Positions 1 to 63,445 of a stretch of DNA of 64,000 bases are shown in pieces. The DNA is from Escherichia coli (GTDB lineage: Bacteria > Pseudomonadota > Gammaproteobacteria > Enterobacterales > Enterobacteriaceae), in assembly GCF_029227855.1 (NCBI RefSeq), contig NZ_CP074356.1. The stretch is one strand, 5' to 3'. The position numbers and the translations under genes were made by a program. Every line of letters begins with the position of its first letter. Within the stretch, counting starts at the first letter, position 1. The notes under the pieces were generated by a model, which worked only from the letters and a program-made list of their open reading frames with translations, was not told the origin of the DNA and ran no database searches.

Positions 1-5656
<5,656 letters not shown>

Positions 5657-12320: not shown

Positions 12321-12321
12321 A

Positions 12322-17625: not shown

Positions 17626-17649
17626 AACCCGCTTCGGCGGGTTTATTTT
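17626..17649 (+). terminator. Rho-independent terminator after hok
   Basis: AACCCGCTTCGGCGGGTT hairpin followed by TTATTTT. Confidence 0.5.
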
Positions 17650-20769: not shown

Positions 20770-20874
20770 TCACAAACCGCCATTAGCTTATCAGGAAGAG
20801 CAGACGACACGATAACAGGGGTGTTGGTGCGGGGGGGGGGCGGGTCCCCGATGGCGGTCCATTATCGGTATTCA

Positions 20875-20951
20875 GCGTTGTTAGCTCAGCCGGACAGAGC
20901 AATTGCCTTCTAAGCAATCGGTCACTGGTTCGAATCCAGTACAGCGCGCCA
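20875..20951 (+). tRNA. Phage-borne tRNA-Arg (anticodon UCU)
   Basis: GCGTTGTTAGCTCAGCCGGACAGAGCAATTGCCTTCTAAGCAATCGGTCACTGGTTCGAATCCAGTACAGCGCGCCA. Confidence 0.85.
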
Positions 20952-26339: not shown

Positions 26340-26540
26340 GTCCTTTCCGGTGATCCGACAGGTTACGGGGCGGCGACCTCGCGGGTTTTCGCTATTTATG
26401 AAAATTTTCTGGGGAAAATCATGTCGGTACTTCTCGAACATAACTATTTGTTTTTTCTAATATCGAATCCGTAAAAGGTCCGACATGAAAACGCCTAAAA
26501 AAGTCATTTTCGGGCACTTTCATGTCGGCCCCTGTATTTA
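26340..26540 (+). other. Prophage cos site: lambda-identical cosN (cohesive end GGGCGGCGACCT at 26369..26380) with a non-lambda cosB (three CATGTCGG-type elements)
   Basis: ACGGGTCCTTTCCGGTGATCCGACAGGTTACG|GGGCGGCGACCT|CGCGGGTTTTCGCTATTTATGAAAATTTTC matches lambda; downstream repeats differ from lambda R sites. Confidence 0.8.
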
Positions 26541-26555
26541 TTGTGAGACTGTTTC

Positions 26556-27075
26556 ATGAAGGTTAATAAAAAGAAACTTGCCGAAATTTTCAACGTGGAT
26601 CCGCGAACGATTGAACGCTGGCAGTCTCAGGGACTCCCTTGCGTCTCCGGAGGTGGTAAGGGCGTTGAATCTGTATTTGATACCGCCATGGCAATTCAGT
26701 GGTATGCGCAGAGGGAAGCTGATATCGAAAATGAAAAACTCCGTAAAGAGGTTGAGGATTACAGGGCTGCCAGTGAGGCAGATCTCCAGCCTGGGACTAT
26801 TGAGTACGAACGCCATCGACTTACGCGTGCGCAGGCCGACGCACAGGAGCTGAAGAATGCCAGAGACTCCGCAGAGGTGGTGGAAACCGCATTCTGTACT
26901 TTCGTGCTGTCACGGATCGCAGGTGAAATTGCCAGTATTCTTGACGGGATCCCTCTCTCGGTACAGCGGCGTTTTCCGGAACTGGAAAACCGACATGTTG
27001 ATTTCCTGAAACGGGATATCATCAAAGCCATGAACAAAGCAGCCGCGCTGGATGAACTGATACCGGGGTTGCTGA

Positions 27076-27101
<26 letters not shown>
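26556..27101 (+). CDS. Nu1: Terminase small subunit
   Basis: 181 aa collinear with lambda Nu1 (C-terminal two-thirds nearly identical; N-terminal DNA-binding region diverged). Confidence 0.9.
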
Positions 27102-30782
<3,681 letters not shown>

Positions 30783-30802
<20 letters not shown>

Positions 30803-32102
30803 TCTCCCGCATATTGCCAGCATGGCCTTTAATGAGCCGCTGATGCTTGAACCCGCCTATGCGCGGGTTTTCTTTTGTGCGCTTGCAGGCCAGCTTGGGA
30901 TCAGCCGCCTGACGGATGCGGTGTCCGGCGACAGCCTGACTGCCCAGGAGGCACTCGCGACGCTGGCATTATCCGGTGATGATGACGGACCACGACAGGC
31001 CCGCAGTTATCAGGTCATGAACGGCATCGCCGTGCTGCCGGTGTCCGGCACGCTGGTCAGCCGGACGCGGGCGCTGCAGCCGTACTCGGGGATGACCGGT
31101 TACAACGGCATTATCGCCCGTCTGCAACAGGCTGCCAGCGATCCGATGGTGGACGGCATTCTGCTCGATATGGACACGCCCGGCGGGATGGTGGCGGGGG
31201 CATTTGACTGCGCTGACATCATCGCCCGTGTGCGTGACATAAAACCGGTATGGGCGCTTGCCAACGACATGAACTGCAGTGCAGGTCAGTTGCTTGCCAG
31301 TGCCGCCTCCCGGCGTCTGGTCACGCAGACCGCCCGGACAGGCTCCATCGGCGTCATGATGGCTCACAGTAATTACGGTGCTGCGCTGGAGAAACAGGGT
31401 GTGGAAATCACGCTGATTTACAGCGGCAGCCATAAGGTGGATGGCAACCCCTACAGCCATCTTCCGGATGACGTCCGGGAGACACTGCAGTACCGGATGG
31501 ACGCAACCCGCCAGATGTTTGCGCAGAAGGTGTCGGCATATACCGGCCTGTCCGTGCAGGCTGTGCTGGATACCGAGGCTGCAGTGTACAGCGGTCAGGA
31601 GGCCATTGATGCCGGACTGGCTGATGAACTTGTTAACAGCACCGATGCGATCACCGTCATGCGTGATGCACTGGATGCACGTAAATCCCGTCTCTCAGGA
31701 GGGCGAATGACCAAAGAGACTCAATCAACAACTGTTTCAGCCACTGCTTCGCAGGCTGACGTTACTGACGTGGTGCCAGCGACGGAGGGCGAAAACGCCA
31801 GCGCGGCGCAGCCGGACGTGAACGCGCAGATCACCGCAGCGGTTGCGGCAGAAAACAGCCGCATTATGGGGATCCTCAACTGTGAGGAGGCTCACGGACG
31901 CGAAGAACAGGCGCGCGTTCTGGCAGAAACCCCCGGTATGACCGTGGAAACGGCCCGCCGCATTCTGGCCGCAGCACCACAGAGTGCACAGGCGCGCAGT
32001 GACACTGCGCTGGATCGTCTGATGCAGGGTGCACCGGCACCGCTGGCTGCAGGTAACCCGGCATCTGATGCCGTTAACGATTTGCTGAACACACCAGTGT
32101 AA
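30783..32102 (+). CDS. C: Head maturation protease / scaffold C
   Basis: GTG start giving VTAELRNLPHIASMAFNEPLMLEP..., 439 aa as lambda gpC; track ORF begins further upstream in the same frame. Confidence 0.9.
31707..32102 (+). CDS. Nu3: Scaffolding protein Nu3 (in-frame internal start within C)
   Basis: Internal ATG giving MTKETQSTTVSATASQ..., 131 aa, same frame as C. Confidence 0.6.
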   Translation: MTKETQSTTVSATASQADVTDVVPATEGENASAAQPDVNAQITAAVAAENSRIMGILNCEEAHGREEQARVLAETPGMTVETARRILAAAPQSAQARSDTALDRLMQGAPAPLAAGNPASDAVNDLLNTPV

Positions 32103-32111
32103 GGGATGTTT

Positions 32112-32444
32112 ATGACGAGCAAAGAAACCTTTACCCATTACCAGCCGCTGGGCAACAGTGACCCGGCTCATACCGCAACCGCGCCAGGCGGATTGAGTGC
32201 GAAAGCGCCTGCAATGACCCCGCTGATGCTGGACACCTCCACCCGTAAGCTGGTTGCGTGGGATGGCACCACCGACGGTGCTGCTGTCGGCATTCTTGCT
32301 GTTGCTGCTGACCAGACCAGCACCACGCTGACGTTCTACAAGTCCGGCACGTTCCGTTATGAGGATGTGCTCTGGCCGGAGGCTGCCAGCGACGAGACGA
32401 AAAAACGGACCGCGTTTGCCGGAACGGCAATCAGCATCGTTTAA
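32112..32444 (+). CDS. D: Head decoration protein D
   Basis: [27 protein letters not shown]...; lambda gpD. Confidence 0.9.
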
Positions 32445-32499
32445 CCTTACCCTTCATCACTAAAGGCCGCCTGTGCGGCTTTTTTTACGGGATTTTTTT

Positions 32500-32775
32500 A
32501 TGTCGATGTACACAACCGCCCAGCTGCTGGCGGCAAATGAGCAGAAATTTAAGTTTGATCCGCTGTTTCTGCGTCTCTTTTTCCGTGAGAGCTATCCCTT
32601 CACCACGGAGAAAGTCTATCTCTCACAAATTCCGGGGCTGGTAAACATGGCGCTGTACGTTTCGCCGATTGTTTCCGGTGAGGTTATCCGCTCCCGTGGC
32701 GGCTCCACCTCTGAATTTACGCCGGGATATGTCAAGCCGAAGCACTTAGCATGGCTTTCTGAGGCTTTCGTGTAG
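32500..32775 (+). pseudogene. E: Major capsid protein E, 5' fragment (codons 1-82) disrupted by insertion
   Basis: MSMYTTAQLLAANEQKFKFDPLFLRLFFRESYPF...EFTPGYVKPKH matches lambda gpE, then reads into foreign sequence (LAWLSEAFV, stop at 32775). Confidence 0.85.
32735..32744 (+). repeat. Left copy of 10-bp direct repeat AGCCGAAGCA (putative att core of the inserted element)
   Basis: Identical 10-mer at 43864..43873 exactly where E homology resumes. Confidence 0.6.
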
Positions 32776-32907: not shown

Positions 32908-34143
32908 ATGGCTGGCGAGAACAAACTGAGCGACAAAGCGCTTAAAGGATATCTGGGGAAACCCAGAGAAAAGCAGATCACCATTGCTGATGGAAAGGGG
33001 CTTTCTATTCGTGTGAGTACTAAAGGGGCTGTGAGCTTTGTTTTCTTCTACAGGTTAGCAGGTGGCCGGGCTGCTCCGGTCTGGCTAACGTTGGGTAAAT
33101 ATCCTGATATGTCACTCAAACAGGCAAGGGAAAAGCGCGACGAGTGCCGTGGTTGGTTGGCTGACAAACGTGATCCGCGTATCCAGATTAAGATTCAGGC
33201 TGAAGAACGCTTAAAGCCGGTCACAGTGGAGGATGCACTAAATTACTGGTATGAAAATTACTGTAAGGTGCGTCGTAAAACTCATGCTGTAACGCTTGGC
33301 AGATTTCGAAAGCATATCTTTCCCTATATCGGTCATTTGCCCGTAAATGACACTCACCTATATGAATAGCTGGACTGTTTTGACCGAATTAAACGTAATG
33401 CACCAGTTATGGCGGCGTATGTTTTTTCTGACACTAAATTAGCTCTTCGTTTTTGTCGGGTACGCCAGTACGCGACGTGTGATGCTTTAAAGGATTTGCG
33501 CATGAGTGATGTGGGGCAGATTGCAGGTAAGCGGGATCGGGTTCTGGATGAGGTCGAACTCGGCCAGCTCTGGAAGGCAATTTTTGTCGAGCCTGATTTA
33601 AAACTAATGTCTGAATACACGCGAAAAATGTTTGTGCTTTGTACAGTATTTGGATGTCGAATGAGTGAAGCCCGATTATCAGAATGGAGCGAATGGGATC
33701 TCGAAAGTTGGGTTTGGACTGTGCCAAAAGATCACTCAAAAACTGGTGTTGAAATCGTCAGACCAGTACCTGAAATTCTACGACAGTGGGTAACGGATGT
33801 TCACGAAGAGACAAAACATACTGGTTATGTGCTGGGAAGTCTGCGAATTAGAGAAAGCGTAAGCAAGATTGGGGGGAAAATCGGTAAACGTTTGGGCCAT
33901 GAAAAACAATGGTCACTACACGACCTTAGAAGAACGCTATCTACTCATCTAAGTGATCTCGGTGTTGAATTTTATGTAGTAGAACAACTGTTAGGCCATG
34001 CGCTACCTGGCGTGGCAGGTGTTTACAACCGGAGTAAGTTTATGGCTAAAAAACTGGATGCTCTGGAACTCTGGACTACATATCTCAATAGCATCGCAGC
34101 TGCTGATTCAAAAGTGACAATCCTCAAACAAAAGGCTGGTTAG
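32908..34143 (+). pseudogene. int: P4-type tyrosine integrase interrupted by an in-frame amber codon (TAG at 33367..33369)
   Basis: Track ORFs 32857..33369 and 33409..34143 are in the same frame; P4-int-like N-terminus (..KGLSIRVSTKGAVSFVFFYR..GKYPDMSLKQAREKRDE..); TAG sits where homologues have Trp. Confidence 0.8.
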
Positions 34144-40128: not shown

Positions 40129-41169
40129 ATGGTTGATTTATATTCGCCTACTCAGCTTGTACAGGTAGTTAATGCTGTAGATGTACAAAAACAACTAAAT
40201 GCGTTGTTTACCAGTTTGTTTTTTACTCGCTCGGTAATGTTTGAATCGCGCGATATTATTCTTGATACAATCGACGATCCAAATATCCCAATTGCAGCGT
40301 TTTGTTCTCCTATGGTGGGTAGTAAAGTTTCACGTGACGAAGGGTACGAATCAAAAACAATTCGTCCAGGCTATATGAAGCCGAAAAGCAGCATTGATCC
40401 AAATAAGTTAGCTGTGCGCCCTGCTGGTGTGTCACCTGAGCAATACAATGCTTTTGGGGCGCGTAATATTAAAGTTAAACAGGCGATTGTAAATCAGGCT
40501 AAAGCTATTCGTGCACGTATTGAATGGCTTGCTGTTCAGGCAATCACAACGGGGAAAAATATCATTGAGGGCGATGGTATTGAACGTTATGAGCTGGACT
40601 GGAATATAAAACCACAAAATATCATCACTCAGTCTGGCGGTACTGAGTGGTCAGGTAAGGATAAAGAAACTTTTGATCCAAATGATGATATTGAGAGCTA
40701 CGCAGAATTTAGTGAGGGCGTCACTAATATCATCATTATGGGTGGTAATGTATGGAAGAAATACCGTTCATTCAGAGCGATAAAAGAGGCTTTGGATACC
40801 CGTCGTGGTTCTAATTCCGAACTGGAAACGGCCCTTAAAGACCTTGGTGATTCGGTGAGTTTTAAAGGGTATATGGGCGATGTTGCGATTGTTGTTTACA
40901 GCGGGCGTTATACCGACGAGGACGGAACAGAAAAACATTTCCTTGATCCTGATTTGATGGTGCTTGGCAATACGGCTCTTCAGGGGATTGTCGCCTATGG
41001 CGGTATTCAGGATCCGGAGCTAATCCGAATGGGGCTGACTAAAGCCGAACTTGCACCGAAAAACTATATTGTGCCTGGTGATCCGGCTATTGAATATGTG
41101 CAGACACATTCAGCACCACAGCCAATACCGGCCCGCATCAATCGTTTTGTTACCGTTCGCATTGGCTAA
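40129..41169 (+). CDS. Satellite-encoded major capsid protein, lambda gpE family (346 aa)
   Basis: Collinear similarity to gpE (ITQSGGTEWSGKDKETFDPNDDIESYA..., ..LDTRRGSNSELETALKDLG..GDVAIVVYSGRY..MVLGNT..); start set at MVDLYSPTQ with AGGA RBS. Confidence 0.8.
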   Translation: MVDLYSPTQLVQVVNAVDVQKQLNALFTSLFFTRSVMFESRDIILDTIDDPNIPIAAFCSPMVGSKVSRDEGYESKTIRPGYMKPKSSIDPNKLAVRPAGVSPEQYNAFGARNIKVKQAIVNQAKAIRARIEWLAVQAITTGKNIIEGDGIERYELDWNIKPQNIITQSGGTEWSGKDKETFDPNDDIESYAEFSEGVTNIIIMGGNVWKKYRSFRAIKEALDTRRGSNSELETALKDLGDSVSFKGYMGDVAIVVYSGRYTDEDGTEKHFLDPDLMVLGNTALQGIVAYGGIQDPELIRMGLTKAELAPKNYIVPGDPAIEYVQTHSAPQPIPARINRFVTVRIG

Positions 41170-41939: not shown

Positions 41940-42145
41940 GCGGGTCCTTTCCGGCGATCCAGAACGTTACGGGGCGTCAGGCGCGCAGTTTTTCGCTATT
42001 TGTGAAAATTTTCCTGTTTAAGGCGTTTCCGTTCTTCTTCGCCGTAACTTAATGTTTTTATTAAAAACACCCCCTAAAAAGAAAGGAAACGACAGGTGCT
42101 AAAAACAGGCTTTTTGGCCTCTGTCGTTTCCTTTCTCTGGTTTTG
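41940..42145 (+). other. Second cos site, belonging to the satellite: altered cohesive-end sequence (GGGCGTCAGGCG at 41972..41983) with lambda-type cosB elements
   Basis: GGGTCCTTTCCGGCGATCC..GTTACG|GGGCGTCAGGCG|CGCAGTTTTTCGCTATTTGTGAAAATTTTCCTGTTTAAGGCGTTTCCGTTCTTCTTCG..GAAAGGAAACGACAGGTG..TCTGTCGTTTCCTTTCTC tracks lambda cos closely. Confidence 0.75.
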
Positions 42146-42481
42146 TTGCCATCCGTCGCGGTCTATCACCAGAAAAAATCTTATCCCTGAGTTGAATCAG
42201 GCCCTATTCAGAAGCGGCCAATAACGCGCCGCTAGCTTCACTTCATAGTTATGGCCTACTTCTGCGCCATTGCAATTGCTTTATGCGCCTTGATGGTGGA
42301 ATATAGAGCAAGCAGTTTGCGAATAACAAAGTTTCATATGTTTTTTGCTGTGTGGCTAGACAACTTTACAGCAGAGTTTTGTGTCAGTTCTTTATGTGTG
42401 CAAGCAAGCTTGAGGGGGAATTACTTCTGGCTGTATCTTTGCTTAAGAACAGCAATAATTTAATCATAAGGAAATGTATAT

Positions 42482-42504
42482 AAGCCTGATTAAATTTCAG
42501 GCTT
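42482..42504 (-). terminator. Hairpin terminator after the TIR gene
   Basis: AAGCCTGA-TTAAATT-TCAGGCTT just 3' of the stop. Confidence 0.4.
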
Positions 42505-42513
42505 ATTGAAATG

Positions 42514-43656
42514 TTAACTCCTTATTAGAGAGTAAATTCCATCCTCTTTAAGGAAGTCTATTACTTCAAAGAATGAGATAAAGAATTCCCAAGAACCAAA
42601 AGCATATGCATGAATTTCGTAAGGTGCAAAATGGAATCTAAATCCATCACTATTTATTGTGAACGAGTCTAAGTTACTATCCATGATACCCGTTGCAAAC
42701 GTACTAATGTCGTCCTCACTTGGTTTTTCACCAGTTTTCTCCCAAAATTCACGAGCTGATTCAGAGATTATTTTTTGTTTTATCTTATTAATCGCTTCTT
42801 GCTCTTTCCCTTCGGTAAATACATCCCATAAACTAAATTTGTATGCGTAGTCATCCTTGGTTATTACGAAATTACTAGTTTCAAAATGACTGTTAGGGTG
42901 TGCTGCTCCCGCACCATACCAATGTACGGAATGAAGGATGCTCATGACATTTTCGTTACAGTATGAGATGTTATAACTTTCATTATAGGAACTAGTGTAA
43001 GTGTGTTTATATTCTTCATCCCAATATGGTGTTCCTGGCCATAGTGATGTGCGTTCAGAAAAAATATGTAAAGCCGCTTTTCCTGAAAAGTAATCACTAA
43101 TGAGTTTTGCTGATTTCGGTAATGTATGGCTTTCAATTCTTGGATATGCTATTTCAATTTCATGCCCTGGGATCTTGTTATATTCTTCCTTGAAAACCTC
43201 GCTGCTAAAGTTAAATGGCCCATAAGTGATACCTTGAGATATTTCAAGTTTTTGTTGCGATGCTGCTAATCTTAAAGATCTAGATAAAATGTCCCAACCA
43301 TCATTTCTCTTAAAATCAATGAATTGGAGCTTGCTTGATATGTAGGCGGGTACTTCGCAATCATCAATAAGTAATGGTATCACGAACACATCATCTGGTT
43401 TGTAATACTTTAGTTTATCAATGGCGTCATTTATTTCGCGGCGAATATAACCATTTTTCTGAGTGCTCACTTTGCTAAGGATAAGGATTATCAAGTTTGA
43501 ATTAGCGAAGTTTTTTTGGATTTCATAATCCCAGTTTACGCCAGCGGGTATATCTTTTACATCCATCCAAGGGGAATATCCTCCACTTTTTAGCCTTTCA
43601 TAGATTTCTTCAGTTATCGTTTCATCTTCTTTTGCATGAGCAAGAAAAATTTTCAT
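42514..43656 (-). CDS. TIR-domain protein with ~250-aa C-terminal domain of unknown function (380 aa); candidate anti-phage defence gene
   Basis: N-terminus MKIFLAHAKEDE...SNLIILILSKVS..YIRREINDAIDK..VIPLLIDD fits the bacterial TIR pattern; AAGGA RBS; AT-rich; between satellite cos and right att repeat. Confidence 0.75.
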   Translation of the reverse strand: MKIFLAHAKEDETITEEIYERLKSGGYSPWMDVKDIPAGVNWDYEIQKNFANSNLIILILSKVSTQKNGYIRREINDAIDKLKYYKPDDVFVIPLLIDDCEVPAYISSKLQFIDFKRNDGWDILSRSLRLAASQQKLEISQGITYGPFNFSSEVFKEEYNKIPGHEIEIAYPRIESHTLPKSAKLISDYFSGKAALHIFSERTSLWPGTPYWDEEYKHTYTSSYNESYNISYCNENVMSILHSVHWYGAGAAHPNSHFETSNFVITKDDYAYKFSLWDVFTEGKEQEAINKIKQKIISESAREFWEKTGEKPSEDDISTFATGIMDSNLDSFTINSDGFRFHFAPYEIHAYAFGSWEFFISFFEVIDFLKEDGIYSLIRS

Positions 43657-43863
43657 TGAATATTCCTTTATAATTTAACTAATTAAGTGAAGGAGGCTTT
43701 ACTTGGCTGTGTTAGAAAAAATTCGGTTTGTTTTTTGTACGATGCCAAGAAGGCTTTTCCCTAACCATGTATTGCAGCATGTATTGCTACGTAATTCTGC
43801 ACCCTCTCATTTATAAAATAAATCTCTGTTAAATCAAGTATCTTTTTTCTATTTGACTCATGT

Positions 43864-43873
43864 AGCCGAAGCA
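43864..43873 (+). repeat. Right copy of 10-bp direct repeat AGCCGAAGCA
   Basis: Identical to 32735..32744; E reading frame resumes immediately after. Confidence 0.6.
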
Positions 43874-44699
43874 TGAGGTGAATCCGCAGATGACCCTGCG
43901 TCGCCTGCCGGATGAAGATCCGCAGAATCTGGCGGACCCGGCTTACCGCCGCCGTCGCATCATTATGCAGAACATGCGTGACGAAGAGCTGGCCATTGCC
44001 CAGGTCGAAGAGATGCAGGCAGTTTCTGCCGTGCTTAAGGGCAAATACACCATGACCGGTGAAGCCTTCGATCCGGTTGAGGTGGATATGGGCCGCAGTG
44101 AGGCGAATAACATCACGCAGTCCGGCGGCACGGAGTGGAGCAAGCGTGACAAGTCCACGTATGACCCGACCGACGATATCGAAGCCTACGCGCTGAACGC
44201 CAGCGGAGTGGTGAATATCATCGTGTTTGATCCGAAAGGCTGGGCGCTGTTCCGTTCCTTCAAAGCCGTCAAGGAGAAGCTGGATACTCGTCGCGGCTCT
44301 CATTCCGAGCTGGAGACAGCGGTGAAAGACCTGGGCAAAGCGGTGTCCTACAAGGGGATGTATGGCGATGTGGCCATCGTCGTGTATTCCGGACAGTACG
44401 TGGAAAACGGCGTCAAAAAGAACTTCCTGCCGGACAACACGATGGTGCTGGGGAACACTCAGGCACGCGGTCTGCGCACCTATGGCTGCATTCAGGATGC
44501 GGACGCACAGCGCGAAGGCATTAACTCCTCTGCCCGTTACCCGAAAAACTGGGTGACCACCGGCGATCCGGCGCGTGAGTTCACCATGATTCAGTCAGCA
44601 CCGCTGATGCTGCTGGCTGACCCTGATGAGTTCGTGTCCGTACAACTGGCGCAATCGTGGCCCTTCGGGGCCATTTTCTCTCTGTGGAGGAGTCCATGA
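43866..44699 (+). pseudogene. E: Major capsid protein E, 3' fragment (codons ~80-341) plus 15-codon readthrough extension
   Basis: PKHEVNPQMTLRRLPDEDPQNLADPAYRRRRIIMQN... matches lambda gpE to ..DEFVSVQLA; the lambda stop position reads CAA here, so the frame runs to TGA at 44697..44699. Confidence 0.85.
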
Positions 44700-45091
44700 C
44701 GAAAGATGAACTGATTGTCCGTCTCCGGTCGCTGGGTGAGCAACTGAACCGTGATGTCAGCCTGACGGGGACGAAAGAAGAACTGGCGCTCCGTGTGGCA
44801 GAGCTGGAAGAGGAGCTTGATGACACGGATGACGCTGCCGGTCAGGATACCCCTCTCAGACCGGAAAATGCGCTGACCGGACATGAAAATGAGGTGGTAT
44901 CAGAGCAGCCGGATACCATGATTGATACGGCTGCTCTGGTCACGGTCGTGGCACTGGTGACGCTGCATACTGATGCACTTCACGCCACGCGGGATGAACC
45001 TGTGGCATTTGTGCTGCCGGGAACGGCGTTTCGTGTCTCTGTCGGTGTGGCAGCCGAAATGACAGAACGTGGCCTGGCCAGAATGCAATAA
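44696..45091 (+). CDS. FI: DNA-packaging protein FI
   Basis: MTKDELIVRLRSLGEQLNRDVSLTGTKEELALRVAELEEELDD...; lambda FI. Confidence 0.9.
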   Translation: MTKDELIVRLRSLGEQLNRDVSLTGTKEELALRVAELEEELDDTDDAAGQDTPLRPENALTGHENEVVSEQPDTMIDTAALVTVVALVTLHTDALHATRDEPVAFVLPGTAFRVSVGVAAEMTERGLARMQ

Positions 45092-45102
45092 CGGGAGGCG
45101 CT

Positions 45103-45456
45103 GTGGCTGATTTCGATAACCTGTTCGATGCTGCCATTGCCCGCGCCGATGAAACGATACGCGGGTACATGGGAACGTCAGCCACCATGACATCCGGTGA
45201 GCAGTCCGGCGCTGTGATACGTGGTGTTTTTGATGACCCTGAAAATATCAGCTATGCCGGACAGGGCGTACGCGTTGAAGGCTCCAGCCCGTCCCTGTTT
45301 GTCCGGACTGATGATGTGCGGCAACTGCGGCGTGGAGACACGCTGACCATCGGTGAGGAAAACTTCTGGATAGATCGTGTTTCGCCGGATGATGGCGGAA
45401 GCTGTCATCTCTGGCTTGGGCGGGGCGTACCGCCTGCCGTTAACCGTCGCCGCTGA
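45103..45456 (+). CDS. FII: Head completion protein FII
   Basis: 117 aa, lambda FII-like; GTG start. Confidence 0.9.
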   Translation: MADFDNLFDAAIARADETIRGYMGTSATMTSGEQSGAVIRGVFDDPENISYAGQGVRVEGSSPSLFVRTDDVRQLRRGDTLTIGEENFWIDRVSPDDGGSCHLWLGRGVPPAVNRRR

Positions 45457-45467
45457 AAGGGGGATGT

Positions 45468-46046
45468 ATGGCCATAAAAGGTCTTGAGCAGGCCGTTGAA
45501 AACCTCAGCCGTATCAGCAAAACGGCGGTGCCTGGTGCCGCCGCAATGGCCATTAACCGCGTTGCTTCATCCGCGATATCGCAGTCGGCGTCACAGGTTG
45601 CCCGTGAGACAAAGGTACGCCGGAAACTGGTAAAGGAAAGGGCCAGGCTGAAAAGGGCCACGGTTAAAAATCCGCAGGCCAGAATCAGGGTTAACCGGGG
45701 GGATTTGCCCGTAATCAGGCTGGGTAATGCGCGGGTTGTCCTGTCCCGACGCAGGCGTCGTAAAAAGGGGCAGCGTTCATCCCTGAAAGGTGGCGGCAGC
45801 GTGCTTGTGGTGGGAAACCGTCGTATTCCCGGCGCGTTTATTCAGCAACTGAAAAATGGCCGGTGGCATGTTATGCAGCGTGTGGCCGGGAAAAACCGTT
45901 ACCCCATTGATGTGGTGAAAATCCCGATGGCGGTGCCACTGACCACGGCGTTTAAACAGAATATTGAACGGATACGGCGTGAGCGTCTTCCGAAAGAGCT
46001 GGGCTATGCGCTGCAGCATCAACTGAGAATGGTAATAAAGCGATGA
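45468..46046 (+). CDS. Z: Tail completion protein Z
   Basis: 192 aa, lambda gpZ-like. Confidence 0.9.
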   Translation: MAIKGLEQAVENLSRISKTAVPGAAAMAINRVASSAISQSASQVARETKVRRKLVKERARLKRATVKNPQARIRVNRGDLPVIRLGNARVVLSRRRRRKKGQRSSLKGGGSVLVVGNRRIPGAFIQQLKNGRWHVMQRVAGKNRYPIDVVKIPMAVPLTTAFKQNIERIRRERLPKELGYALQHQLRMVIKR

Positions 46047-46438
46047 AACATACTGAACTCCGTGCAGCCGTACTGGATGCACTGGAGAAGCATGACACCG
46101 GGGCGACGCTTTTTGATGGTCGCCCCGCTGTTTTTGATGAGGCGGATTTTCCGGCAATTGCCGTTTATCTCACCGGCGCTGAATACACGGGCGAAGAGCT
46201 GGACAGCGATACCTGGCAGGCGGAGCTGCATATTGAAGTTTTCCTGCCTGCTCAGGTGCCGGATTCAGAGCTGGATTCGTGGATGGAGTCCCGGATTTAT
46301 CCGGTGATGAGCGATGTCCCGGCACTGTCAGATTTGATCACCAGTATGGTGGCCAGTGGCTATGACTACCGGCGCGACGATGATGCGGGCCTGTGGAGTT
46401 CAGCCGATCTGACTTATGTCATTACCTATGAAATGTGA
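46043..46438 (+). CDS. U: Tail terminator protein U
   Basis: 131 aa, lambda gpU-like. Confidence 0.9.
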
Positions 46439-46445
46439 GGACGCT

Positions 46446-47186
46446 ATGCCTGTACCAAATCCAGTAATGCCGGTGAAAGGGGCCGGGACCACACTGTGGG
46501 TTTATAAGGGGAACGGTGACCCTTATGCGAACCCGCTTTCAGACGTTGACTGGTCGCGTCTGGCTAAAGTTAAAGACCTGACGCCCGGCGAACTGACCGC
46601 TGAGTCCTATGACGACAGCTATCTCGATGATGAGGATGCGGACTGGACTGCGACCGGGCAGGGGCAGAAATCTGCCGGAGATACCAGCTTCACGCTGGCG
46701 TGGATGCCCGGAGAGCAGGGGCAGCAGGCGCTGCTGGCGTGGTTTAATGAAGGCGATACCCGTGCCTATAAAATCCGCTTCCCGAACGGCACGGTCGATG
46801 TGTTCCGTGGCTGGGTCAGCAGTATCGGTAAGGCGGTGACGGCGAAGGAAGTGATCACCCGCACGGTGAAAGTCACCAATGTGGGACGTCCGTCGATGGC
46901 AGAAGATCGCAGCATGGTAACAGCGGCAACCGGCATGACCGTGACGCCTGCCAGCACCTCGGTGGTGAAAGGGCAGAGCACCACGCTGACCGTGGCCTTC
47001 CAGCCGGAGGGCGTAACCGACAAGAGCTTTCGTGCGGTGTCTGCGGATAAAACAAAAGCCACCGTGTCGGTCAGTGGTATGACCATCACCGTGAACGGCG
47101 TTGCTGCAGGCAAGGTCAACATTCCGGTTGTATCCGGTAATGGTGAGTTTGCTGCGGTTGCAGAAATTACCGTCACCGCCAGTTAA
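46446..47186 (+). CDS. V: Major tail protein V
   Basis: [22 protein letters not shown]...; lambda gpV with C-terminal Ig-like domain. Confidence 0.9.
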
Positions 47187-47201
47187 TCCGGAGAGTCAGC
47201 G

Positions 47202-47624
47202 ATGTTCCTGAAAACCGAATCATTTGAACATAACGGTGTGACCGTCACGCTTTCTGAACTGTCAGCCCTGCAGCGCATTGAGCATCTCGCCCTGATGAAA
47301 CGGCAGGCAGAACAGGCGGAGTCAGACAGCAACCGGAAGTTTACTGTGGAAGACGCCATCAGAACCGGCGCGTTTCTGGTGGCGATGTCCCTTTGGCATA
47401 ACCATCCGCAGAAGACGCAGATGCCGTCCATGAATGAAGCCGTTAAACAGATTGAGCAGGAAGTGCTTACCACCTGGCCCACGGAGGCAATTTCTCATGC
47501 TGAAAACGTGGTGTACCGGCTGTCCGGTATGTCTGAGTTTGTGGTGAATAATGCCCCTGAACAGACAGAGGACGCCGGGCCCGCAGAGCCTGTTTCTGCG
47601 GGAAAGTGTTCGACGGTGAGCTGA
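47202..47624 (+). CDS. G: Tail assembly chaperone G
   Basis: 140 aa, lambda gpG-like. Confidence 0.9.
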   Translation: MFLKTESFEHNGVTVTLSELSALQRIEHLALMKRQAEQAESDSNRKFTVEDAIRTGAFLVAMSLWHNHPQKTQMPSMNEAVKQIEQEVLTTWPTEAISHAENVVYRLSGMSEFVVNNAPEQTEDAGPAEPVSAGKCSTVS

Positions 47625-48040
47625 GTTTTGCCCTGAAACTGGCGCGTGAGATGGGGCGACCCGACTGGCGTGCCATGCTTGCCGGGATGTCATCCACGGA
47701 GTATGCCGACTGGCACCGCTTTTACAGTACCCATTATTTTCATGATGTTCTGCTGGATATGCACTTTTCCGGGCTGACGTACACCGTGCTCAGCCTGTTT
47801 TTCAGCGATCCGGATATGCATCCGCTGGATTTCAGTCTGCTGAACCGGCGCGAGGCTGACGAAGAGCCTGAAGATGATGTGCTGATGCAGAAAGCGGCAG
47901 GGCTTGCCGGAGGTGTCCGCTTTGGCCCGGACGGGAATGAAGTTATCTCCGCTTCCCCGGATGTGGCGGACATGACGGAGGATGACGTAATGCTGATGAC
48001 AGTATCAGAAGGGATCGCAGGAGGAGTCCGGTATGGCTGA
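47202..48040 (+). CDS. T: Tail assembly chaperone G-T fusion made by programmed -1 frameshift at GGGAAAG (47600..47606)
   Basis: Canonical lambda slippery heptamer near the end of G; T frame open from there to 48040. Confidence 0.75.
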
Positions 48041-50594
48041 ACCGGTAGGCGATCTGGTCGTTGATTTGAGTCTGGATGCGGCCAGATTTGACGAGCAGAT
48101 GGCCAGAGTCAGGCGTCATTTTTCCGGTACGGAAAGTGATGCGAAAAAAACAGCGGCAGTCGTTGAACAGTCGCTGAGCCGACAGGCGCTGGCTGCACAG
48201 AAAGCGGGGATTTCCGTCGGGCAGTATAAAGCCGCCATGCGTATGCTGCCTGCACAGTTCACCGACGTGGCCACGCAGCTTGCAGGGGGGCAGAATCCGT
48301 GGCTCATCCTGCTGCAACAGGGGGGGCAGGTGAAGGACTCCTTCGGCGGGATGATCCCCATGTTCAGGGGGCTTGCCGGTGCGATCACCCTGCCGATGGT
48401 GGGGGCCACCTCGCTGGCGGTGGCGACCGGTGCACTGGCGTATGCCTGGTATCAGGGCAACTCAACCCTGTCCGATTTCAACAAAACGCTGGTCCTTTCC
48501 GGCAATCAGGCGGGACTGACGGCAGATCGTATGCTGGTCCTGTCCAGAGCCGGGCAGGCGGCAGGGCTGACGTTTAACCAGACCAGCGAGTCACTCAGCG
48601 CACTGGTTAAGGCGGGGGTAAGCGGTGAGGCTCAGATTGCGTCCATCAGCCAGAGTGTGGCGCGTTTCTCCTCTGCATCCGGCGTGGAGGTGGACAAGGT
48701 CGCTGAAGCCTTCGGGAAGCTGACCACAGACTCGACGTCGGGGCTGACGGCGATGGCACGCCAGTTCCATAACGTGACGGCGGAGCAGATTGCGTATGTT
48801 GCTCAGTTGCAGCGTTCCGGCGATGAAGCCGGGGCATTGCAGGCGGCGAACGAGGCCGCAACGAAAGGGTTTGATGACCAGACCCGCCGCCTGAAAGAGA
48901 ACATGGGCACGCTGGAGACCTGGGCAGACAGGACTGCGCGGGCATTCAAATCCATGTGGGATGCGGTGCTGGATATTGGTCGTCCTGATACCGCGCAGGA
49001 GATGCTGATTAAGGCAGAGGCTGCGTTTAAGAAAGCAGACGACATCTGGAATCTGCGCAAGGATGATTATTTTGTTAACGATGAAGCGCGGGCGCGTTAC
49101 TGGGATGATCGTGAAAAGGCCCGTCTTGCGCTTGAAGCCGCCCGAAAGAAGGCTGAGCAGCAGACTCAACAGGACAAAAATGCGCAGCAGCAGAGCGATA
49201 CCGAAGCGTCACGGCTGAAATATACCGAAGAGGCGCAGAAGGCTTACGAACGGCTGCAGACGCCGCTGGAGAAATATACCGCCCGTCAGGAAGAACTGAA
49301 CAAGGCACTGAAAGACGGGAAAATCCTGCAGGCGGATTACAACACGCTGATGGCGGCGGCGAAAAAGGATTATGAAGCGACGCTGAAAAAGCCGAAACAG
49401 TCCGGCGTGAAGGTGTCTGCGGGCGATCGTCAGGAAGACAGTGCTCATGCTGCCCTGCTGACGCTTCAGGCAGAACTCCGGACGCTGGAGAAGCATGCCG
49501 GAGCAAATGAGAAAATCAGCCAGCAGCGCCGGGATTTGTGGAAGGCGGAGAGTCAGTTCGCGGTACTGGAGGAGGCGGCGCAACGTCGCCAGCTGTCTGC
49601 ACAGGAGAAATCCCTGCTGGCGCATAAAGATGAGACGCTGGAGTACAAACGCCAGCTTGCTGCACTTGGCGACAAGGTTACGTATCAGGAGCGCCTGAAC
49701 GCGCTGGCGCAGCAGGCGGATAAATTCGCACAGCAGCAACGGGCAAAACGGGCCGCCATTGATGCGAAAAGCCGGGGGCTGACTGACCGGCAGGCAGAAC
49801 GGGAAGCCACGGAACAGCGCCTGAAGGAACAGTATGGCGATAATCCGCTGGCGCTGAATAACGTCATGTCAGAGCAGAAAAAGACCTGGGCGGCTGAAGA
49901 CCAGCTTCGCGGGAACTGGATGGCAGGCCTGAAGTCCGGCTGGAGTGAGTGGGAAGAGAGCGCCACGGACAGTATGTCGCAGGTAAAAAGTGCAGCCACG
50001 CAGACCTTTGATGGTATTGCACAGAATATGGCGGCGATGCTGACCGGCAGTGAGCAGAACTGGCGCAGCTTCACCCGTTCCGTGCTGTCCATGATGACAG
50101 AAATTCTGCTTAAGCAGGCAATGGTGGGGATTGTCGGGAGTATCGGCAGCGCCATTGGCGGGGCTGTTGGTGGCGGCGCATCCGCGTCAGGCAGTACAGC
50201 CATTCAGGCCGCTGCGGCGAAATTCCATTTTGCAACCGGAGGATTTACGGGAACCGGCGGCAAATATGAGCCAGCGGGGATTGTTCACCGTGGTGAGTTT
50301 GTCTTCACGAAGGAGGCAACCAGCCGGATTGGCGTGGGGAATCTTTACCGGCTGATGCGCGGCTATGCCACTGGTGGTTATGTCGGTGGCACCGGAAGTC
50401 CGGCACAAATGCGGCGTTCAGAGGGTATCAGATTTGAGCAGAACAACAACGTGGTGATTCAGAACGACGGTACGAATGGTCTGCCAGGTCCACAGATGCT
50501 GAAGGCGGTGTATGACATGGCCCGCAAGGGTGCCCGTGATGAAATTCAGGCACAGATGCGTGATGGTGGTCTGTTCTCCGGAGGTGGACGATGA
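48033..50594 (+). CDS. H: Tail tape measure protein H
   Basis: 853 aa, lambda gpH-like. Confidence 0.95.
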   Translation: MAEPVGDLVVDLSLDAARFDEQMARVRRHFSGTESDAKKTAAVVEQSLSRQALAAQKAGISVGQYKAAMRMLPAQFTDVATQLAGGQNPWLILLQQGGQVKDSFGGMIPMFRGLAGAITLPMVGATSLAVATGALAYAWYQGNSTLSDFNKTLVLSGNQAGLTADRMLVLSRAGQAAGLTFNQTSESLSALVKAGVSGEAQIASISQSVARFSSASGVEVDKVAEAFGKLTTDSTSGLTAMARQFHNVTAEQIAYVAQLQRSGDEAGALQAANEAATKGFDDQTRRLKENMGTLETWADRTARAFKSMWDAVLDIGRPDTAQEMLIKAEAAFKKADDIWNLRKDDYFVNDEARARYWDDREKARLALEAARKKAEQQTQQDKNAQQQSDTEASRLKYTEEAQKAYERLQTPLEKYTARQEELNKALKDGKILQADYNTLMAAAKKDYEATLKKPKQSGVKVSAGDRQEDSAHAALLTLQAELRTLEKHAGANEKISQQRRDLWKAESQFAVLEEAAQRRQLSAQEKSLLAHKDETLEYKRQLAALGDKVTYQERLNALAQQADKFAQQQRAKRAAIDAKSRGLTDRQAEREATEQRLKEQYGDNPLALNNVMSEQKKTWAAEDQLRGNWMAGLKSGWSEWEESATDSMSQVKSAATQTFDGIAQNMAAMLTGSEQNWRSFTRSVLSMMTEILLKQAMVGIVGSIGSAIGGAVGGGASASGSTAIQAAAAKFHFATGGFTGTGGKYEPAGIVHRGEFVFTKEATSRIGVGNLYRLMRGYATGGYVGGTGSPAQMRRSEGIRFEQNNNVVIQNDGTNGLPGPQMLKAVYDMARKGARDEIQAQMRDGGLFSGGGR

Positions 50595-50920
50595 AAACCT
50601 TCCGCTGGAAAGTGAAACCCGGTATGGATGTGGCTTCGGCCCCTTCCGTAAGAAAGGTGCGCTTTGGTGATGGCTATTCCCAGCGAGCGCCTGCCGGGCT
50701 GAACGCTGACCTGAAAACGTACAGCGTGACGCTTTCTGTTCACCGTTGGGAGGCCACGGCGCTGGAGTCGTTTCTGGCTGAGCACGGGGGCTGGAAGGCC
50801 TTTCTGTGGACGCCGCCTTATGAGTGGCGGCAGATAAAGGTGACCTGCGCAAAATGGACGTCGCGGGTCAGTATGCTGCGTGTTGAGTTCAGCGCAGAGT
50901 TTGAACAGGTGGTGAACTGA
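50591..50920 (+). CDS. M: Minor tail protein M
   Basis: 109 aa, lambda gpM-like. Confidence 0.9.
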   Translation: MKTFRWKVKPGMDVASAPSVRKVRFGDGYSQRAPAGLNADLKTYSVTLSVHRWEATALESFLAEHGGWKAFLWTPPYEWRQIKVTCAKWTSRVSMLRVEFSAEFEQVVN

Positions 50921-51618
50921 TGCAGGATATCCGGCAGGAAACACTGAATGAATGCACCCGTGCGGAGCAGTCGGCCAGCGTGGTGCTCTGGGAAATCGAT
51001 CTGACAGAGGTCGGTGGAGAACGTTATTTTTTCTGTAATGAGCAGAACGAAAAAGGTGAGCCGGTCACCTGGCAGGGGCGGCAGTATCTGGCGTATCCCA
51101 TTCAGGGGAGTGGTTTTGAACTGAATGGCAAAGGCACCAGTACGCGCCCCATGCTGGCAGTCTCTAACCTGTACGGCATGGTCACCGGGATGGCGGAAGA
51201 CCTGCAGAGTCTGGTCGGCGGAACGGTGGTCAGGCGTAAGGTTTACGCCCGTTTTCTGGATGCGGTGAACTTCGTCAACGGAAACAGCGATGCCGATCCG
51301 GAGCAGGAGGTGATCAGCCGCTGGCGCATCGAACAGTGCAGCGAACTGAGCGCGGTCAGTGCCTCTTTTGTACTGTCCACACCGACGGAAACGGACGGCG
51401 CTGTTTTTCCGGGGCGCATCATGCTGGCCAACACCTGCACCTGGACCTATCGCGGTGATGAGTGCGGTTATAACGGTCCGGCGGTCGCGGATGAATATGA
51501 CCAGCCGACGTCCGATATCACGAAGGATAAATGCAGCAAATGCCTGAGTGGCTGTAAGTTTCGCAATAATGTCGGCAACTTTGGCGGCTTCCTTTCCATT
51601 AACAAACTTTCGCAGTAA
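50920..51618 (+). CDS. L: Minor tail protein L
   Basis: 232 aa, lambda gpL-like. Confidence 0.9.
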   Translation: MQDIRQETLNECTRAEQSASVVLWEIDLTEVGGERYFFCNEQNEKGEPVTWQGRQYLAYPIQGSGFELNGKGTSTRPMLAVSNLYGMVTGMAEDLQSLVGGTVVRRKVYARFLDAVNFVNGNSDADPEQEVISRWRIEQCSELSAVSASFVLSTPTETDGAVFPGRIMLANTCTWTYRGDECGYNGPAVADEYDQPTSDITKDKCSKCLSGCKFRNNVGNFGGFLSINKLSQ

Positions 51619-51623
51619 ATCCC

Positions 51624-52367
51624 ATGACAGAGACAGAATCAGCGATTCTGGCGCACGCCCGGCGATGTGCGCCAGCGGAGTCGTGCGGCTTCGTGGTGAG
51701 AACGCCGGAAGGGGAAAGATATTTTCCCTGCGTGAATATCTCCGGTGAGCCGGAGGCGTATTTCCGGATGTCGCCGGAGGACTGGCTGCGGGCAGAGATG
51801 CAGGGTGAGATTGTGGCGCTGGTCCACAGCCACCCCGGTGGCCTGCCCTGGCTGAGTGAGGCTGACAGGCGGCTGCAGGTGCAGAGCGATTTGCCTTGGT
51901 GGCTGGTCTGCCGGGGTGAGATTCATAAATTCCGCTGTGTGCCGCATCTTACCGGGCGGCGCTTTGAGCACGGGGCGACGGACTGTTACACGCTGTTCCG
52001 GGATGCTTATCATCTGGCGGGGATTGAGATGCCGGACTTTCATCGTGAGGATGACTGGTGGTGTAACGGCCAGAATCTCTATCTGGATAATCTGGAGGCC
52101 ACAGGGCTGTATCAGGTGCCGTTGTCAGCGGCGCAGCCGGGCGATGTGCTGCTGTGCTGTTTTGGTTCATCGGTGCCGAATCATGCCGCCATTTACTGCG
52201 GCGACGGTGAGCTGTTGCACCATATTCCTGAACAACTGAGCAAACGAGAGAGGTATACCGACAAATGGCAGCGACGCACACACTCCCTCTGGCGTCACCG
52301 GGCATGGCACGCATCTGCCTTTACGGGGATTTACAACGATTTGGCCGCCGCATCGACCTTCGTGTAA
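51624..52367 (+). CDS. K: Tail assembly protein K
   Basis: 247 aa, lambda gpK-like. Confidence 0.9.
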   Translation: MTETESAILAHARRCAPAESCGFVVRTPEGERYFPCVNISGEPEAYFRMSPEDWLRAEMQGEIVALVHSHPGGLPWLSEADRRLQVQSDLPWWLVCRGEIHKFRCVPHLTGRRFEHGATDCYTLFRDAYHLAGIEMPDFHREDDWWCNGQNLYLDNLEATGLYQVPLSAAQPGDVLLCCFGSSVPNHAAIYCGDGELLHHIPEQLSKRERYTDKWQRRTHSLWRHRAWHASAFTGIYNDLAAASTFV

Positions 52368-52912
52368 AAACGGGGGCTGAAGCCATCCGGGCGTTGTCCA
52401 CACAGCTCCCGGCGTTTCGTCAGGAACTGAATGACGGCTGGTATCAGGTGCGCATTGCCGGGCGTGATGCAGGTGAAACCGAATTATCTGCCCGTCTTAA
52501 TGAGCCGCTGGCAAATGGTGCCGTGATCCACATCGTGCCGCGTCTGGCGGGAGCTAAAAGTGGCGGTGTGTTTCAGGTGGTGCTGGGGGCGGCGCTGATT
52601 GCGGTGGCATGGTGGAACCCTGTGGGCTGGCTGGGAGCCGCGGCTGTATCGGGTATGTATGCGGCAGGGGCCAGTATGATCCTGGGCGGAGTGGCGCAGA
52701 TGCTGGCACCGAAAGCCAGGACGCCCACGGCAGCAAGTACAGATAACGGCAAACAGAACACCTATTTCTCCTCACTGGATAACATGGTTGCCCAGGGCAA
52801 TGTTCTGCCCGTTCTGTACGGTGAAATGCGCGTGGGGTCGCGGGTGGTCTCTCAGGAGATCAGCACGGCAGACGAAGGGGATGGTGGTCAGGTTGTGGTG
52901 ATTGGCCGCTGA
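52265..52912 (+). CDS. I: Tail assembly protein I
   Basis: 215 aa, overlaps K as in lambda. Confidence 0.85.
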   Translation: MAATHTLPLASPGMARICLYGDLQRFGRRIDLRVKTGAEAIRALSTQLPAFRQELNDGWYQVRIAGRDAGETELSARLNEPLANGAVIHIVPRLAGAKSGGVFQVVLGAALIAVAWWNPVGWLGAAAVSGMYAAGASMILGGVAQMLAPKARTPTAASTDNGKQNTYFSSLDNMVAQGNVLPVLYGEMRVGSRVVSQEISTADEGDGGQVVVIGR

Positions 52913-52972
52913 TGCAAAATATTTCATGTGAAACCGCCTCCGGGCGGTTTTGTCGTTTATGGAGTATGACGA

Positions 52973-55900
52973 ATGGGCAAAGGAAGCAGTAAGGGGCATA
53001 CCCCGCGCGAAGCGAAGGACAACCTGAAGTCCACGCAACTGCTGAGTGTGATTGATGCCATCAGCGAAGGGCCGATTGAAGGTCCGGTGGATGGATTAAA
53101 AAGCGTGCTGCTGAACAGTACGCCAGTGCTGGACACTGAGGGGAATACCAACATCTCCGGCGTCACGGTGGTGTTCCGGGCCGGTGAGCAGGAGCAGACA
53201 CCGCCGGAGGGATTTGAATCCTCCGGCTCCGAGACGGTGCTGGGTACGGAAGTGAAATACGACACGCCGATCACCCGGACCATCACGTCGGCAAACATTG
53301 ACCGACTGCGTTTTACCTTCGGCGTGCAGGCACTGGTGGAAACCACCTCAAAGGGGGACAGGAATCCGTCGGAAGTCCGCCTGCTGGTTCAGATACAACG
53401 TAACGGTGGCTGGGTGACGGAAAAAGACATCACCATTAAAGGCAAAACCACCTCACAGTATCTGGCCTCGGTGGTGGTGGGTAACCTGCCGCCGCGCCCG
53501 TTCAATATCCGGATGCGCAGGATGACGCCGGACAGCACCACAGACCAACTGCAGAACAAAACGCTCTGGTCGTCATACACCGAAATCATCGATGTGAAAC
53601 AGTGCTACCCGAACACGGCACTGGTTGGCGTGCAGGTGGACTCGGAGCAGTTCGGCAGCCAGCAGGTGAGCCGTAATTATCATCTTCGCGGGCGCATTCT
53701 GCAGGTGCCGTCGAACTATAACCCGCAGACGCGGCAATACAGCGGTATCTGGGACGGAACGTTAAAACCGGCATACAGCAACAACATGGCCTGGTGTCTG
53801 TGGGATATGCTGACCCATCCGCGCTACGGCATGGGGAAACGTCTTGGTGCGGCGGATGTGGATAAATGGGCGCTGTATGTCATCGGCCAGAATTGCGACC
53901 AGTCAGTGCCGGACGGCTTTGGCGGCACGGAGCCACGCATCACCTGTAATGCATACCTGGCCACACAGCGCAAGGCGTGGGATGTGCTCAGTGATTTCTG
54001 CTCGGCGATGCGCTGTATGCCGGTATGGAACGGGCAGACGCTGACGTTCGTGCAGGACCGACCGTCCGATAAGGTGTGGACCTATAACCGCAGTAATGTG
54101 GTGATGCCGGATGATGGCGCGCCGTTCCGCTACAGCTTCAGCGCCCTGAAGGACCGCCATAATGCCGTTGAGGTGAACTGGATTGACCCGGATAACGGCT
54201 GGGAGACGGCGACAGAGCTTGTGGAGGACACGCAGGCCATTGCCCGTTACGGTCGTAACGTCACGAAAATGGATGCTTTTGGCTGTACCAGCCGGGGGCA
54301 GGCACACCGCGCCGGGCTGTGGCTGATTAAAACGGAGCTGCTGGAAACGCAGACCGTGGACTTCAGCGTGGGCGCAGAAGGGCTGCGCCATGTACCGGGT
54401 GATGTTATTGAAATCTGCGATGATGACTATGCGGGGATCAGCATTGGCGGGCGCGTGCTGGCGGTGAACAGCCAGACCCGGACGCTGACGCTCGACCGTG
54501 AAATCACGCTGCCATCCTCCGGTACCACGCTGATAAGCCTGGTTGACGGAAGTGGCAATCCGGTCAGCGTGGAGGTTCAGTCCGTCACCGACGGCGTGAA
54601 GGTAAAAGTGAGCCGTGTTCCTGACGGCGTTGCCGGATACAGCGTATGGGGGCTGAAGCTGCCGACGCTGCGCCAGCGCCTGTTCCGCTGCGTGAGTATC
54701 CGTGAGAACGACGACGGCACGTATGCCATCACCGCCGTGCAGCATGTGCCGGAAAAAGAGGCCATCGTGGATAACGGGGCGCACTTTGACGGCGAACAGA
54801 GTGGCACGGTGAATGGTGTCACGCCGCCAGCGGTGCAGCACCTGACCGCAGAAGTCACTGCAGACAGCGGGGAATATCAGGTGCTGGCGCGATGGGACAC
54901 ACCGAAGGTGGTGAAGGGCGTGAGCTTCCTGCTCCGTCTGACCGTAACAGCGGACGACGGCAGTGAGCGGCTGGTCAGCACGGCCCGGACGACGGAAACA
55001 ACATACCGCTTCAGGCAGCTGGCGCTGGGGAACTACAGGCTGACAGTCCGGGCAGTAAATGCCTGGGGGCAGCAGGGAGACCCGGCGTCGGTATCGTTCC
55101 GGATTGCCGCACCGGCAGCGCCGTCACAGATTGAGCTGACTCCGGGCTATTTTCAGATAACCGCCACGCCGCATCTTGCGGTTTATGATCCGACGGTACA
55201 GTTTGAGTTCTGGTTCTCGGAAAAGCGGATTGCGGATATCAGGCAGGTTGAAACCACAGCACGCTATCTTGGCACGGCGCTGTACTGGATAGCCGCCAGT
55301 ATCAATATCAAACCGGGCCATGATTATTATTTTTACATCCGCAGTGTGAACACCGTTGGCAAATCGGCATTTGTGGAGGCTGTTGGCCAGCCGAGTGATG
55401 ATGCATCCGGCTATCTGAATTTTTTCAAAGGAGAGATAGGGAAAACCCATCTGGCTCAGGAGCTGTGGACGCAGATTGATAACGGTCAGCTTGCGCCTGA
55501 CCTGGCGGAAATCAGAACGTCCATCACGGATGTCAGTAATGAAATCACGCAGACCGTCAATAAGAAACTGGAAGACCAGAGTGCGGCAATCCAGCAGATA
55601 CAGAAGGTTCAGGTTGATACAAATAATAACCTGAACAGCATGTGGGCTGTGAAGCTGCAGCAGATGCAGGACGGACGCCTTTATATCGCGGGTATTGGTG
55701 CCGGTATTGAGAATACCCCTGACGGTATGCAGAGTCAGGTGCTGCTGGCGGCGGACAGGATTGCGATGATTAATCCTGCGAATGGCAACACAAAACCGAT
55801 GTTTGTTGGTCAGGGCGATCAGATATTCATGAACGAAGTGTTCCTGAAATATCTGACGGCTCCCACCATTACCAGCGGCGGTAATCCTCCGGCATTTTCC

Positions 55901-63383: not shown

Positions 63384-63445
63384 CGGTCTCGAAAACCGGA
63401 GTAGGGGCAACTCTACCGGGGGTTCAAATCCCCCTCTCTCCGCCA
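63384..63445 (+). repeat. Prophage right attachment site: 62-bp copy of the serU 3' end
   Basis: CGGTCTCGAAAACCGGAGTAGGGGCAACTCTACCGGGGGTTCAAATCCCCCTCTCTCCGCCA identical to 7064..7125. Confidence 0.85.

Follow-up and report, generated by a model that had tools for sequence, protein, structure and literature searches.

Loss of the capsid gene stop codon in a lambdoid prophage of Escherichia coli carrying a helper-embedded PICI with an interrupted integrase

A lambda-like capsid gene split by a helper-embedded PICI

The DNA analysed here is a stretch of 64,000 nucleotides from an Escherichia coli genome (GCF_029227855.1, contig NZ_CP074356.1), referred to below as the window. It contains a composite of ~56.4 kb, a lambdoid helper prophage with a PICI of the helper-embedded kind (HE-PICI) inside it, that extends from a tRNA-Ser gene (7036-7125) to a partial repeat near 63384-63462. 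Lambda 1-6379 aligns to window positions 26368-32744 and lambda 6370-18002 to 43864-55469, and the major capsid gene E is interrupted at codon 82 by 11,129 bp lying between two copies of AGCCGAAGCA. The left side of the PICI has the lambda genes Nu1 to D and the 5' part of E, and its right side has the 3' part of E, then FI and the following genes as far as J; all of these lie on the (+) strand. The features of this region are:

32500..32744 (+), 5' fragment of E, the helper major capsid gene, codons 1-82 (MSMYTTAQ...PGYVKPKH), ending in the attL identity block
32735..32744 (+), attL identity block AGCCGAAGCA, 10 bp, recognised as a core match and as a 10-bp block in E like that of PMC10111431
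32745..43863 (+), helper-embedded PICI, 11,129 bp from repeat to repeat
32908..34143 (+), PICI tyrosine integrase gene, with an amber codon at 33367-33369 (TGG to TAG, W154*)
40129..41169 (+), the PICI's own major capsid gene, 346 aa, intact (PF03864; a 1041-bp CDS in relatives)
41984..42146 (+), PICI cos-like site, 91.5% identical to lambda 13-176
42514..43656 (-), TIR-domain cargo gene (PF13676 TIR_2 and PF11738 DUF3298) in the variable slot of the PICI
43864..43873 (+), attR identity block AGCCGAAGCA, from the core match and the lambda alignment
43864..44651 (+), 3' fragment of E, to codon 341 (..VQLA), from the lambda alignment and the ORF list

From left to right, the PICI encodes a tyrosine integrase, an AlpA protein, a DUF2971 protein, a primase (annotated in relatives that are 99% identical), an SSB, and its own capsid and decoration proteins. 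A second AlpA-like gene and the cos-like site follow, and then the TIR-domain gene on the opposite strand. The core genes share the (+) strand with the helper late genes, and the Pfam matches include Arm-DNA-bind_3, Phage_integrase, Phage_AlpA, Phage_cap_E, and HDPD. At the protein level, the PICI capsid is 42% identical to helper E.

This arrangement belongs to a described class. The founding HE-PICI, 11capE, occupies a lambdoid prophage's capsid gene, is bounded by a 10-bp identity block, and has its own capsid gene (PMC10111431), and E is the most frequent of 14 late-gene sites occupied by HE-PICIs (Tommasini, Mageeney and Williams, 2023, PMC10111431). As in the capE group, the element in the window has an attL/attR identity block that would restore the target gene, together with integration, replication, and late zones. 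With a coverage of 80% or higher required, 25 or more complete E. coli genomes have an E-embedded PICI of the same layout, and further E. coli genomes have the E-embedded layout with different cargo. All six composites that we examined have an intact 1236-bp integrase and a normal E stop; their E remnants measure 246 and 789 bp, FI lies at its normal distance, and E came to 341 aa in those where our script rebuilt it. Judged by its sequence, the insertion in E is a site-specific and normally reversible satellite integration of the published 11capE type, and it is no decay by itself. The earlier note had read the insertion and the missing stop codon together as a sign that E is decaying; for the insertion, this reading does not hold, given a reversible HE-PICI of a published kind whose layout recurs in those 25 or more genomes.

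The variable slot of the PICI (42150-43860) lies between its cos-like site and attR, and its contents differ among PICIs that are otherwise 99% identical. In relatives, the slot holds terS-like and DUF2971 genes, a hypothetical gene that is either 936 or 1317 bp long, or genes annotated as abortive infection or DUF262. From these gene contents, it looks like a site for swappable defence cargo.

When the two flanks are joined in silico, E becomes one continuous frame of 356 aa that is about 98% identical to lambda E at the nucleotide level. Without its last 15 aa, the rebuilt E is exactly the uninterrupted 341-aa gene, with a normal stop, that is found on seven PICI-free contigs. When both E fragments are compared with a PICI-free relative (GCA_023869285.1), the sole DNA difference is T/C at 44652, which amounts to one change in 1,029 nt of E as against two in about 3,000 nt downstream. 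The E remnant matches Pfam PF03864 (Phage_cap_E), and gene callers start its ORF at ATG 43890, 3' of GAGGTGA. This motif and, nine nt later, the ATG (Met86 of E) lie within window positions 43875-43892, and E-embedded PICI composites account for over 2,000 database entries in which a 254-aa ORF with this start is annotated. A single uninterrupted E of ~341 codons, with its stop ahead of the FI spacer, is not what the window contains.

A glutamine codon in place of the E stop

The second departure from lambda lies at the 3' end of E, where the following features are found:

44652-44654 (+), E stop site, where CAA (Gln) replaces TAA through a T-to-C change at 44652 (direct read and alignment)
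44652-44699 (+), read-through of the E-FI spacer, 15 codons (QSWPFGAIFSLWRSP) followed by TGA at 44697-44699 (ORF list)
44657..44674 (+), GC stem, TTCG loop, and then a T-rich tail, terminator-like, with invariant columns, now inside the extended frame
44696..45091 (+), FI, DNA-packaging chaperone, 131 aa, intact (PF14000), whose ATG overlaps the new TGA

Window positions 44640-44699 (+) read GTA CAA CTG GCG (the ..VQLA codons, 44640-44651), directly followed by CAA at the stop site, and then by TCG TGG, CCC TTC GGG GCC, ATT TTC TCT CTG, TGG AGG AGT CCA, and TGA. The open frame at 43878-44699 consequently ends in ..VQLAQSWPFGAIFSLWRSP. The new TGA (44697-99) overlaps the FI ATG (44696-98), the four letters ATGA being common to both genes, and a sister contig, for which genes were called independently, shows the same 4-nt overlap (3001-3810 and 3807-4202). 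In lambda (NC_001416 7158-7204), the junction has the same gene order, the same ..VQLA end of E, and the same Shine-Dalgarno sequence and start of FI, as well as the GGCCC-TTCG-GGGCC stem-loop, and it is 95.8% identical to the window over 118 nt. The two differ in what follows ..VQLA: in lambda, this is TAA and a 41-nt untranslated spacer, whereas in the window it is CAA, and the spacer has become 15 codons. The stop column has T in all five aligned relatives (lambda, phages 2H10 and PhiR49_1, and E. coli CFSAN064036 and CB9615), and in the alignment the CFSAN064036 and CB9615 prophages are the same as the window over 121 nt save for this base. The earlier note had described the change, its position, the 15 additional codons, and the overlap with the FI start correctly, and the comparison with related lambdoid E genes that it proposed bears this out, with TAA after ..VQLA in lambda and in the four other relatives. 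Programmed read-through of a stop codon was ruled out, as the stop has been swapped for a sense codon and none is retained to be read through.

The Shine-Dalgarno sequence of FI (GGAGGAG, 44686-44692) and its start are unchanged in the alignment. Folding of the 66-nt spacer is no better than that of shuffled sequences (z = -0.74), and the significance of the stem-loop comes from its invariance and not from its energy. The overlapping stop and start (ATGA) have the geometry expected if translation of FI were coupled to that of E, as far as nucleotide positions can tell. On where in the capsid the C-terminus of gpE lies, a literature search returned nothing usable.

Distribution of the CAA allele

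Neither 5,426 complete E. coli genomes nor 50,697 phage records gave a match to a 40-nt probe that has the C at its centre and is unable to seed on TAA copies. The surrounding 121-nt region has 4,513 copies, spread over 3,198 of the 5,426 complete genomes, and none of these copies is identical to the window. The nearest 28 are one base off, and in both of the copies that were aligned this base is the T-to-C site. The exact pattern GTACAACTGGCGCAATCNTGGCCC, which permits TCA or TCG as the next codon, gave 0 matches in IMG/VR, JGI metagenomes, and GTDB representative genomes; its TAA version is present on at least 120 IMG/VR contigs. The exact 356-aa extended E is absent among about 15 billion proteins. 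We relied on these probes rather than on a count of private alleles over 128 homologues, because that count is biased at the stop site, its IMG/VR loci having been fetched with the TAA pattern.

Carriers were nevertheless found. An exact-protein look-up showed that the 269-aa extended ORF is HAY0110855.1, present on six contigs from at least two separate sequencing runs. Among them are contigs of the Logan assemblies for SRR5866348 and SRR24058701, which match the window at 99.97% identity and have C at the site; since one or two other positions differ from the window, these contigs are not copies of one record. In every carrier contig that reaches upstream of the remnant, E is split by the PICI. 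The CAA codon is a real, heritable allele, and it is confined to one small clone. For annotation, this means that the 269-aa “major capsid protein” HAY0110855.1 should be taken as a read-through remnant and not as a capsid variant.

An amber codon in the PICI integrase

The integrase gene of the PICI matches that of E. coli strain 10, which encodes an intact protein of 411 aa, at 1232 of 1236 nt, and one of the four differences creates the TAG. The W154 amber lies upstream of the catalytic (Phage_integrase) domain and splits the protein into an arm-binding piece of 153 aa and a catalytic piece of 244 aa. At 99.7% identity to the integrases of other E-embedded elements, it very likely belongs to the single HE-PICI clade. 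The capE group is also characterised by a functional integrase and by excision once the composite is induced; here, the frame is broken at codon 154, and the protein is predicted to be non-functional. Its function might be supplied in trans by a related integrase encoded elsewhere in the genome.

A 41-nt probe on the TAG allele had no match in the 5,426 complete E. coli genomes. Two other sequencing runs, SRR5866348 and SRR18105866, do have it. CAA and TAG are found together in SRR5866348, and each is also found in one further run, CAA in SRR24058701 and TAG in SRR18105866. Contigs L137-L139, considered as additional carriers of a truncated integrase, were rejected, as they just end at this point and two of them show the TG of the normal TGG. 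The 254-aa TAA version of this exact E remnant, sought in order to place the two mutations in sequence, is not on record.

State of the rest of the prophage

The frames of the remaining late genes are full length all the way from Nu1 to the tail fibre. Among the private substitutions in the sampled genes A, B, C, V, G, T, and H, 10 of 16 are synonymous. Together with the full-length late genes, this proportion indicates that the rest of the prophage has been under purifying selection. E itself has diverged no faster than its neighbours; this level of divergence gives no sign of accelerated decay, and “decay” here refers to one base.

Several other features of the composite and its relatives deserve mention. 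Two cos-like sites in the same orientation, that of the helper at 26368 and that of the PICI at 41984-42146, are about 15.6 kb apart. If the PICI is unable to excise, cleavage at the two sites would yield one fragment of about 15.6 kb and another of about 40.8 kb; the 40.8-kb fragment is inside the lambda packaging range and without head genes. Just downstream of a Q-like antiterminator gene (19729-20550) are two prophage tRNA genes (20694-20951), identified by ARAGORN as tRNA-Met (CAT) and tRNA-Arg (TCT); the first is annotated as tRNA-Ile in a relative, as expected for a lysidine-modified CAT anticodon.

The closest relative among complete genomes, E. coli Ec-U3 (NZ_CM192149.1), is 99.3% identical over window positions 3-32560 and has no PICI. 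At 14667-17494 of the Ec-U3 locus, the IS66-family element ISCro1 separates the decoration gene from a shortened capsid gene, a second and independent strike on the capsid gene. In E. coli strain 10, the E-embedded PICI has an intact integrase, and helper FII and Z (14347-15284 of that locus) are annotated as frameshifted; helper decay elsewhere is therefore possible while the PICI stays intact.

Origin of the stop loss

An error of sequencing or assembly in a single record can scarcely be credited. Such a reading could appeal to the single-base difference from 28 otherwise identical 121-nt copies, but the same base is present in the separate assemblies of SRR5866348 and SRR24058701 and in HAY0110855.1, six contigs in total, and its recurrence in separate runs identifies a heritable allele. 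The earlier note had also allowed for a natural variant and had named intact, functional phages with the same extended E as the finding that would overturn its view; these were searched for, and none was found. A functional capsid protein of 356 rather than 341 aa in working lambdoid phages is very improbable. The added codons keep the frame and stop neatly at the FI start, and a C-terminal tail on a capsid protein of the HK97 fold is conceivable a priori. However, centred 40-nt probes and exact patterns had no match across six collections: no phage record, intact prophage, IMG/VR or other metagenomic contig, GTDB representative, or complete E. coli genome searched has the CAA, the exact 356-aa protein is missing from the protein collection as well, and the carriers that extend upstream of the remnant all have a PICI-split E.

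We think it likely that the stop loss is neutral drift in an E remnant stranded by a dead satellite integrase. A lineage-private T-to-C transition has put a Gln codon where E had its ochre stop, and the frame now crosses the 41-nt E-FI spacer with its conserved hairpin and the FI RBS before ending at the TGA that overlaps the FI ATG. With the integrase amber ahead of the catalytic domain, the PICI presumably no longer excises. With the PICI stuck, E would not be rebuilt and would stay permanently in two pieces, and its stop codon would be under no selection. In the simplest version, the knock-out of the integrase would have come first, and a chance transition would then have struck a stop that had ceased to matter. 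E is probably split for good in this lineage, because the PICI integrase has the private W154 amber. The amber should lock E in two pieces and would in that way make the stop loss selectively invisible. Under this account, the change would have been fixed by drift in a small clone with little or no phenotypic effect, and any remaining capsid function would fall to the PICI's own intact E-like and D-like genes. We infer that the E remnant is no longer needed and that the change is neutral.

Selection for the stop loss is unlikely. It might have acted in one of two ways. Read-through could couple translation of FI to that of E, with ribosomes on the E remnant, or on a rebuilt E, crossing the terminator-like hairpin and halting on the FI start (ATGA); alternatively, the hydrophobic 15-aa tail could cripple the helper capsid protein, leaving the PICI's own capsid protein to take over assembly. 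In keeping with selection, E departs from an intact copy nowhere but at its stop codon, the TGA that now ends the frame overlaps the FI ATG, and the spacer has an invariant stem-loop and a T-rich tail. The remnant is also called by gene callers, with the good Shine-Dalgarno-like GAGGTGA nine nucleotides 5' of ATG 43890, and the PICI has intact E-like and D-like genes. The allele, however, is limited to one small clone and does not recur among thousands of E loci or dozens of E-embedded PICI composites, the RBS and start codon of FI are unchanged, and the spacer shows no sign of evolution as coding sequence; both the coupling and the tail idea are built on geometry and assume that the remnant is translated. 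It is also quite unlikely that the integrase amber and the E stop loss are domestication steps of the helper/PICI composite and not drift. In that case, the amber would lock the TIR-carrying PICI in place, the stop loss would couple FI to the remnant or poison a rebuilt helper capsid protein, and particles, if any form, would be built from the PICI's own capsid protein. The chance that one random change in 1,029 nt abolishes the stop is about 0.2%, a post hoc figure, as no other kind of change would have caught the eye in the earlier note. Both disruptive private mutations in the composite concern stop codons, a coincidence that was likewise noticed post hoc and is unexplained. With drift as the preferred explanation, the stop-loss half of the earlier claim of decay in E survives in a narrow form, as the sole change relative to an uninterrupted E in a composite whose integrase has a private amber.

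Comparison with known systems and significance

The capsid gene, the spacer, and FI are those of an ordinary lambda, and the insertion is of a published class. Like the element in the window, Eco567.11capE (in prophage 50icd of E. coli NRG857c; PMC10111431) is a PICI of ~11 kb in a lambdoid E, with late-operon orientation, a 10-bp attL/attR block, int-alpA on the left, a primase, and its own capsid gene, and in both cases excision would rebuild E. The helper of 11capE occupies icd, whereas the helper here is at a tRNA-Ser next to mtfA. The PICI in the window further differs from 11capE in its TIR-domain cargo, the amber in its integrase, and an E remnant without a stop, and it looks immobilised. 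The main text of PMC10111431 does not contain the words “pseudogene”, “degraded”, or “decay”, and its two uses of “stop codon” are not about E. With respect to the locus examined here, the “insertion” in E is, as a by-product of this analysis, read correctly as a helper-embedded PICI with TIR cargo and a presumably dead integrase.

In grounded or cryptic lambdoid prophages of E. coli, such as DLP12, Rac, and Qin, the late genes gather point mutations and insertions. This decay of late genes starts once the lytic cycle cannot be completed. In comparison, decay in the window is at its very start, with two private stop-related point mutations and intact other late genes that are still evolving mostly by synonymous change. 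What is new is that this copy of a helper/HE-PICI composite would carry the first marks of immobilisation. The stop loss is of little importance in itself, but it may serve as a clean example of the first mutations to appear after a nested helper/satellite pair has been immobilised.
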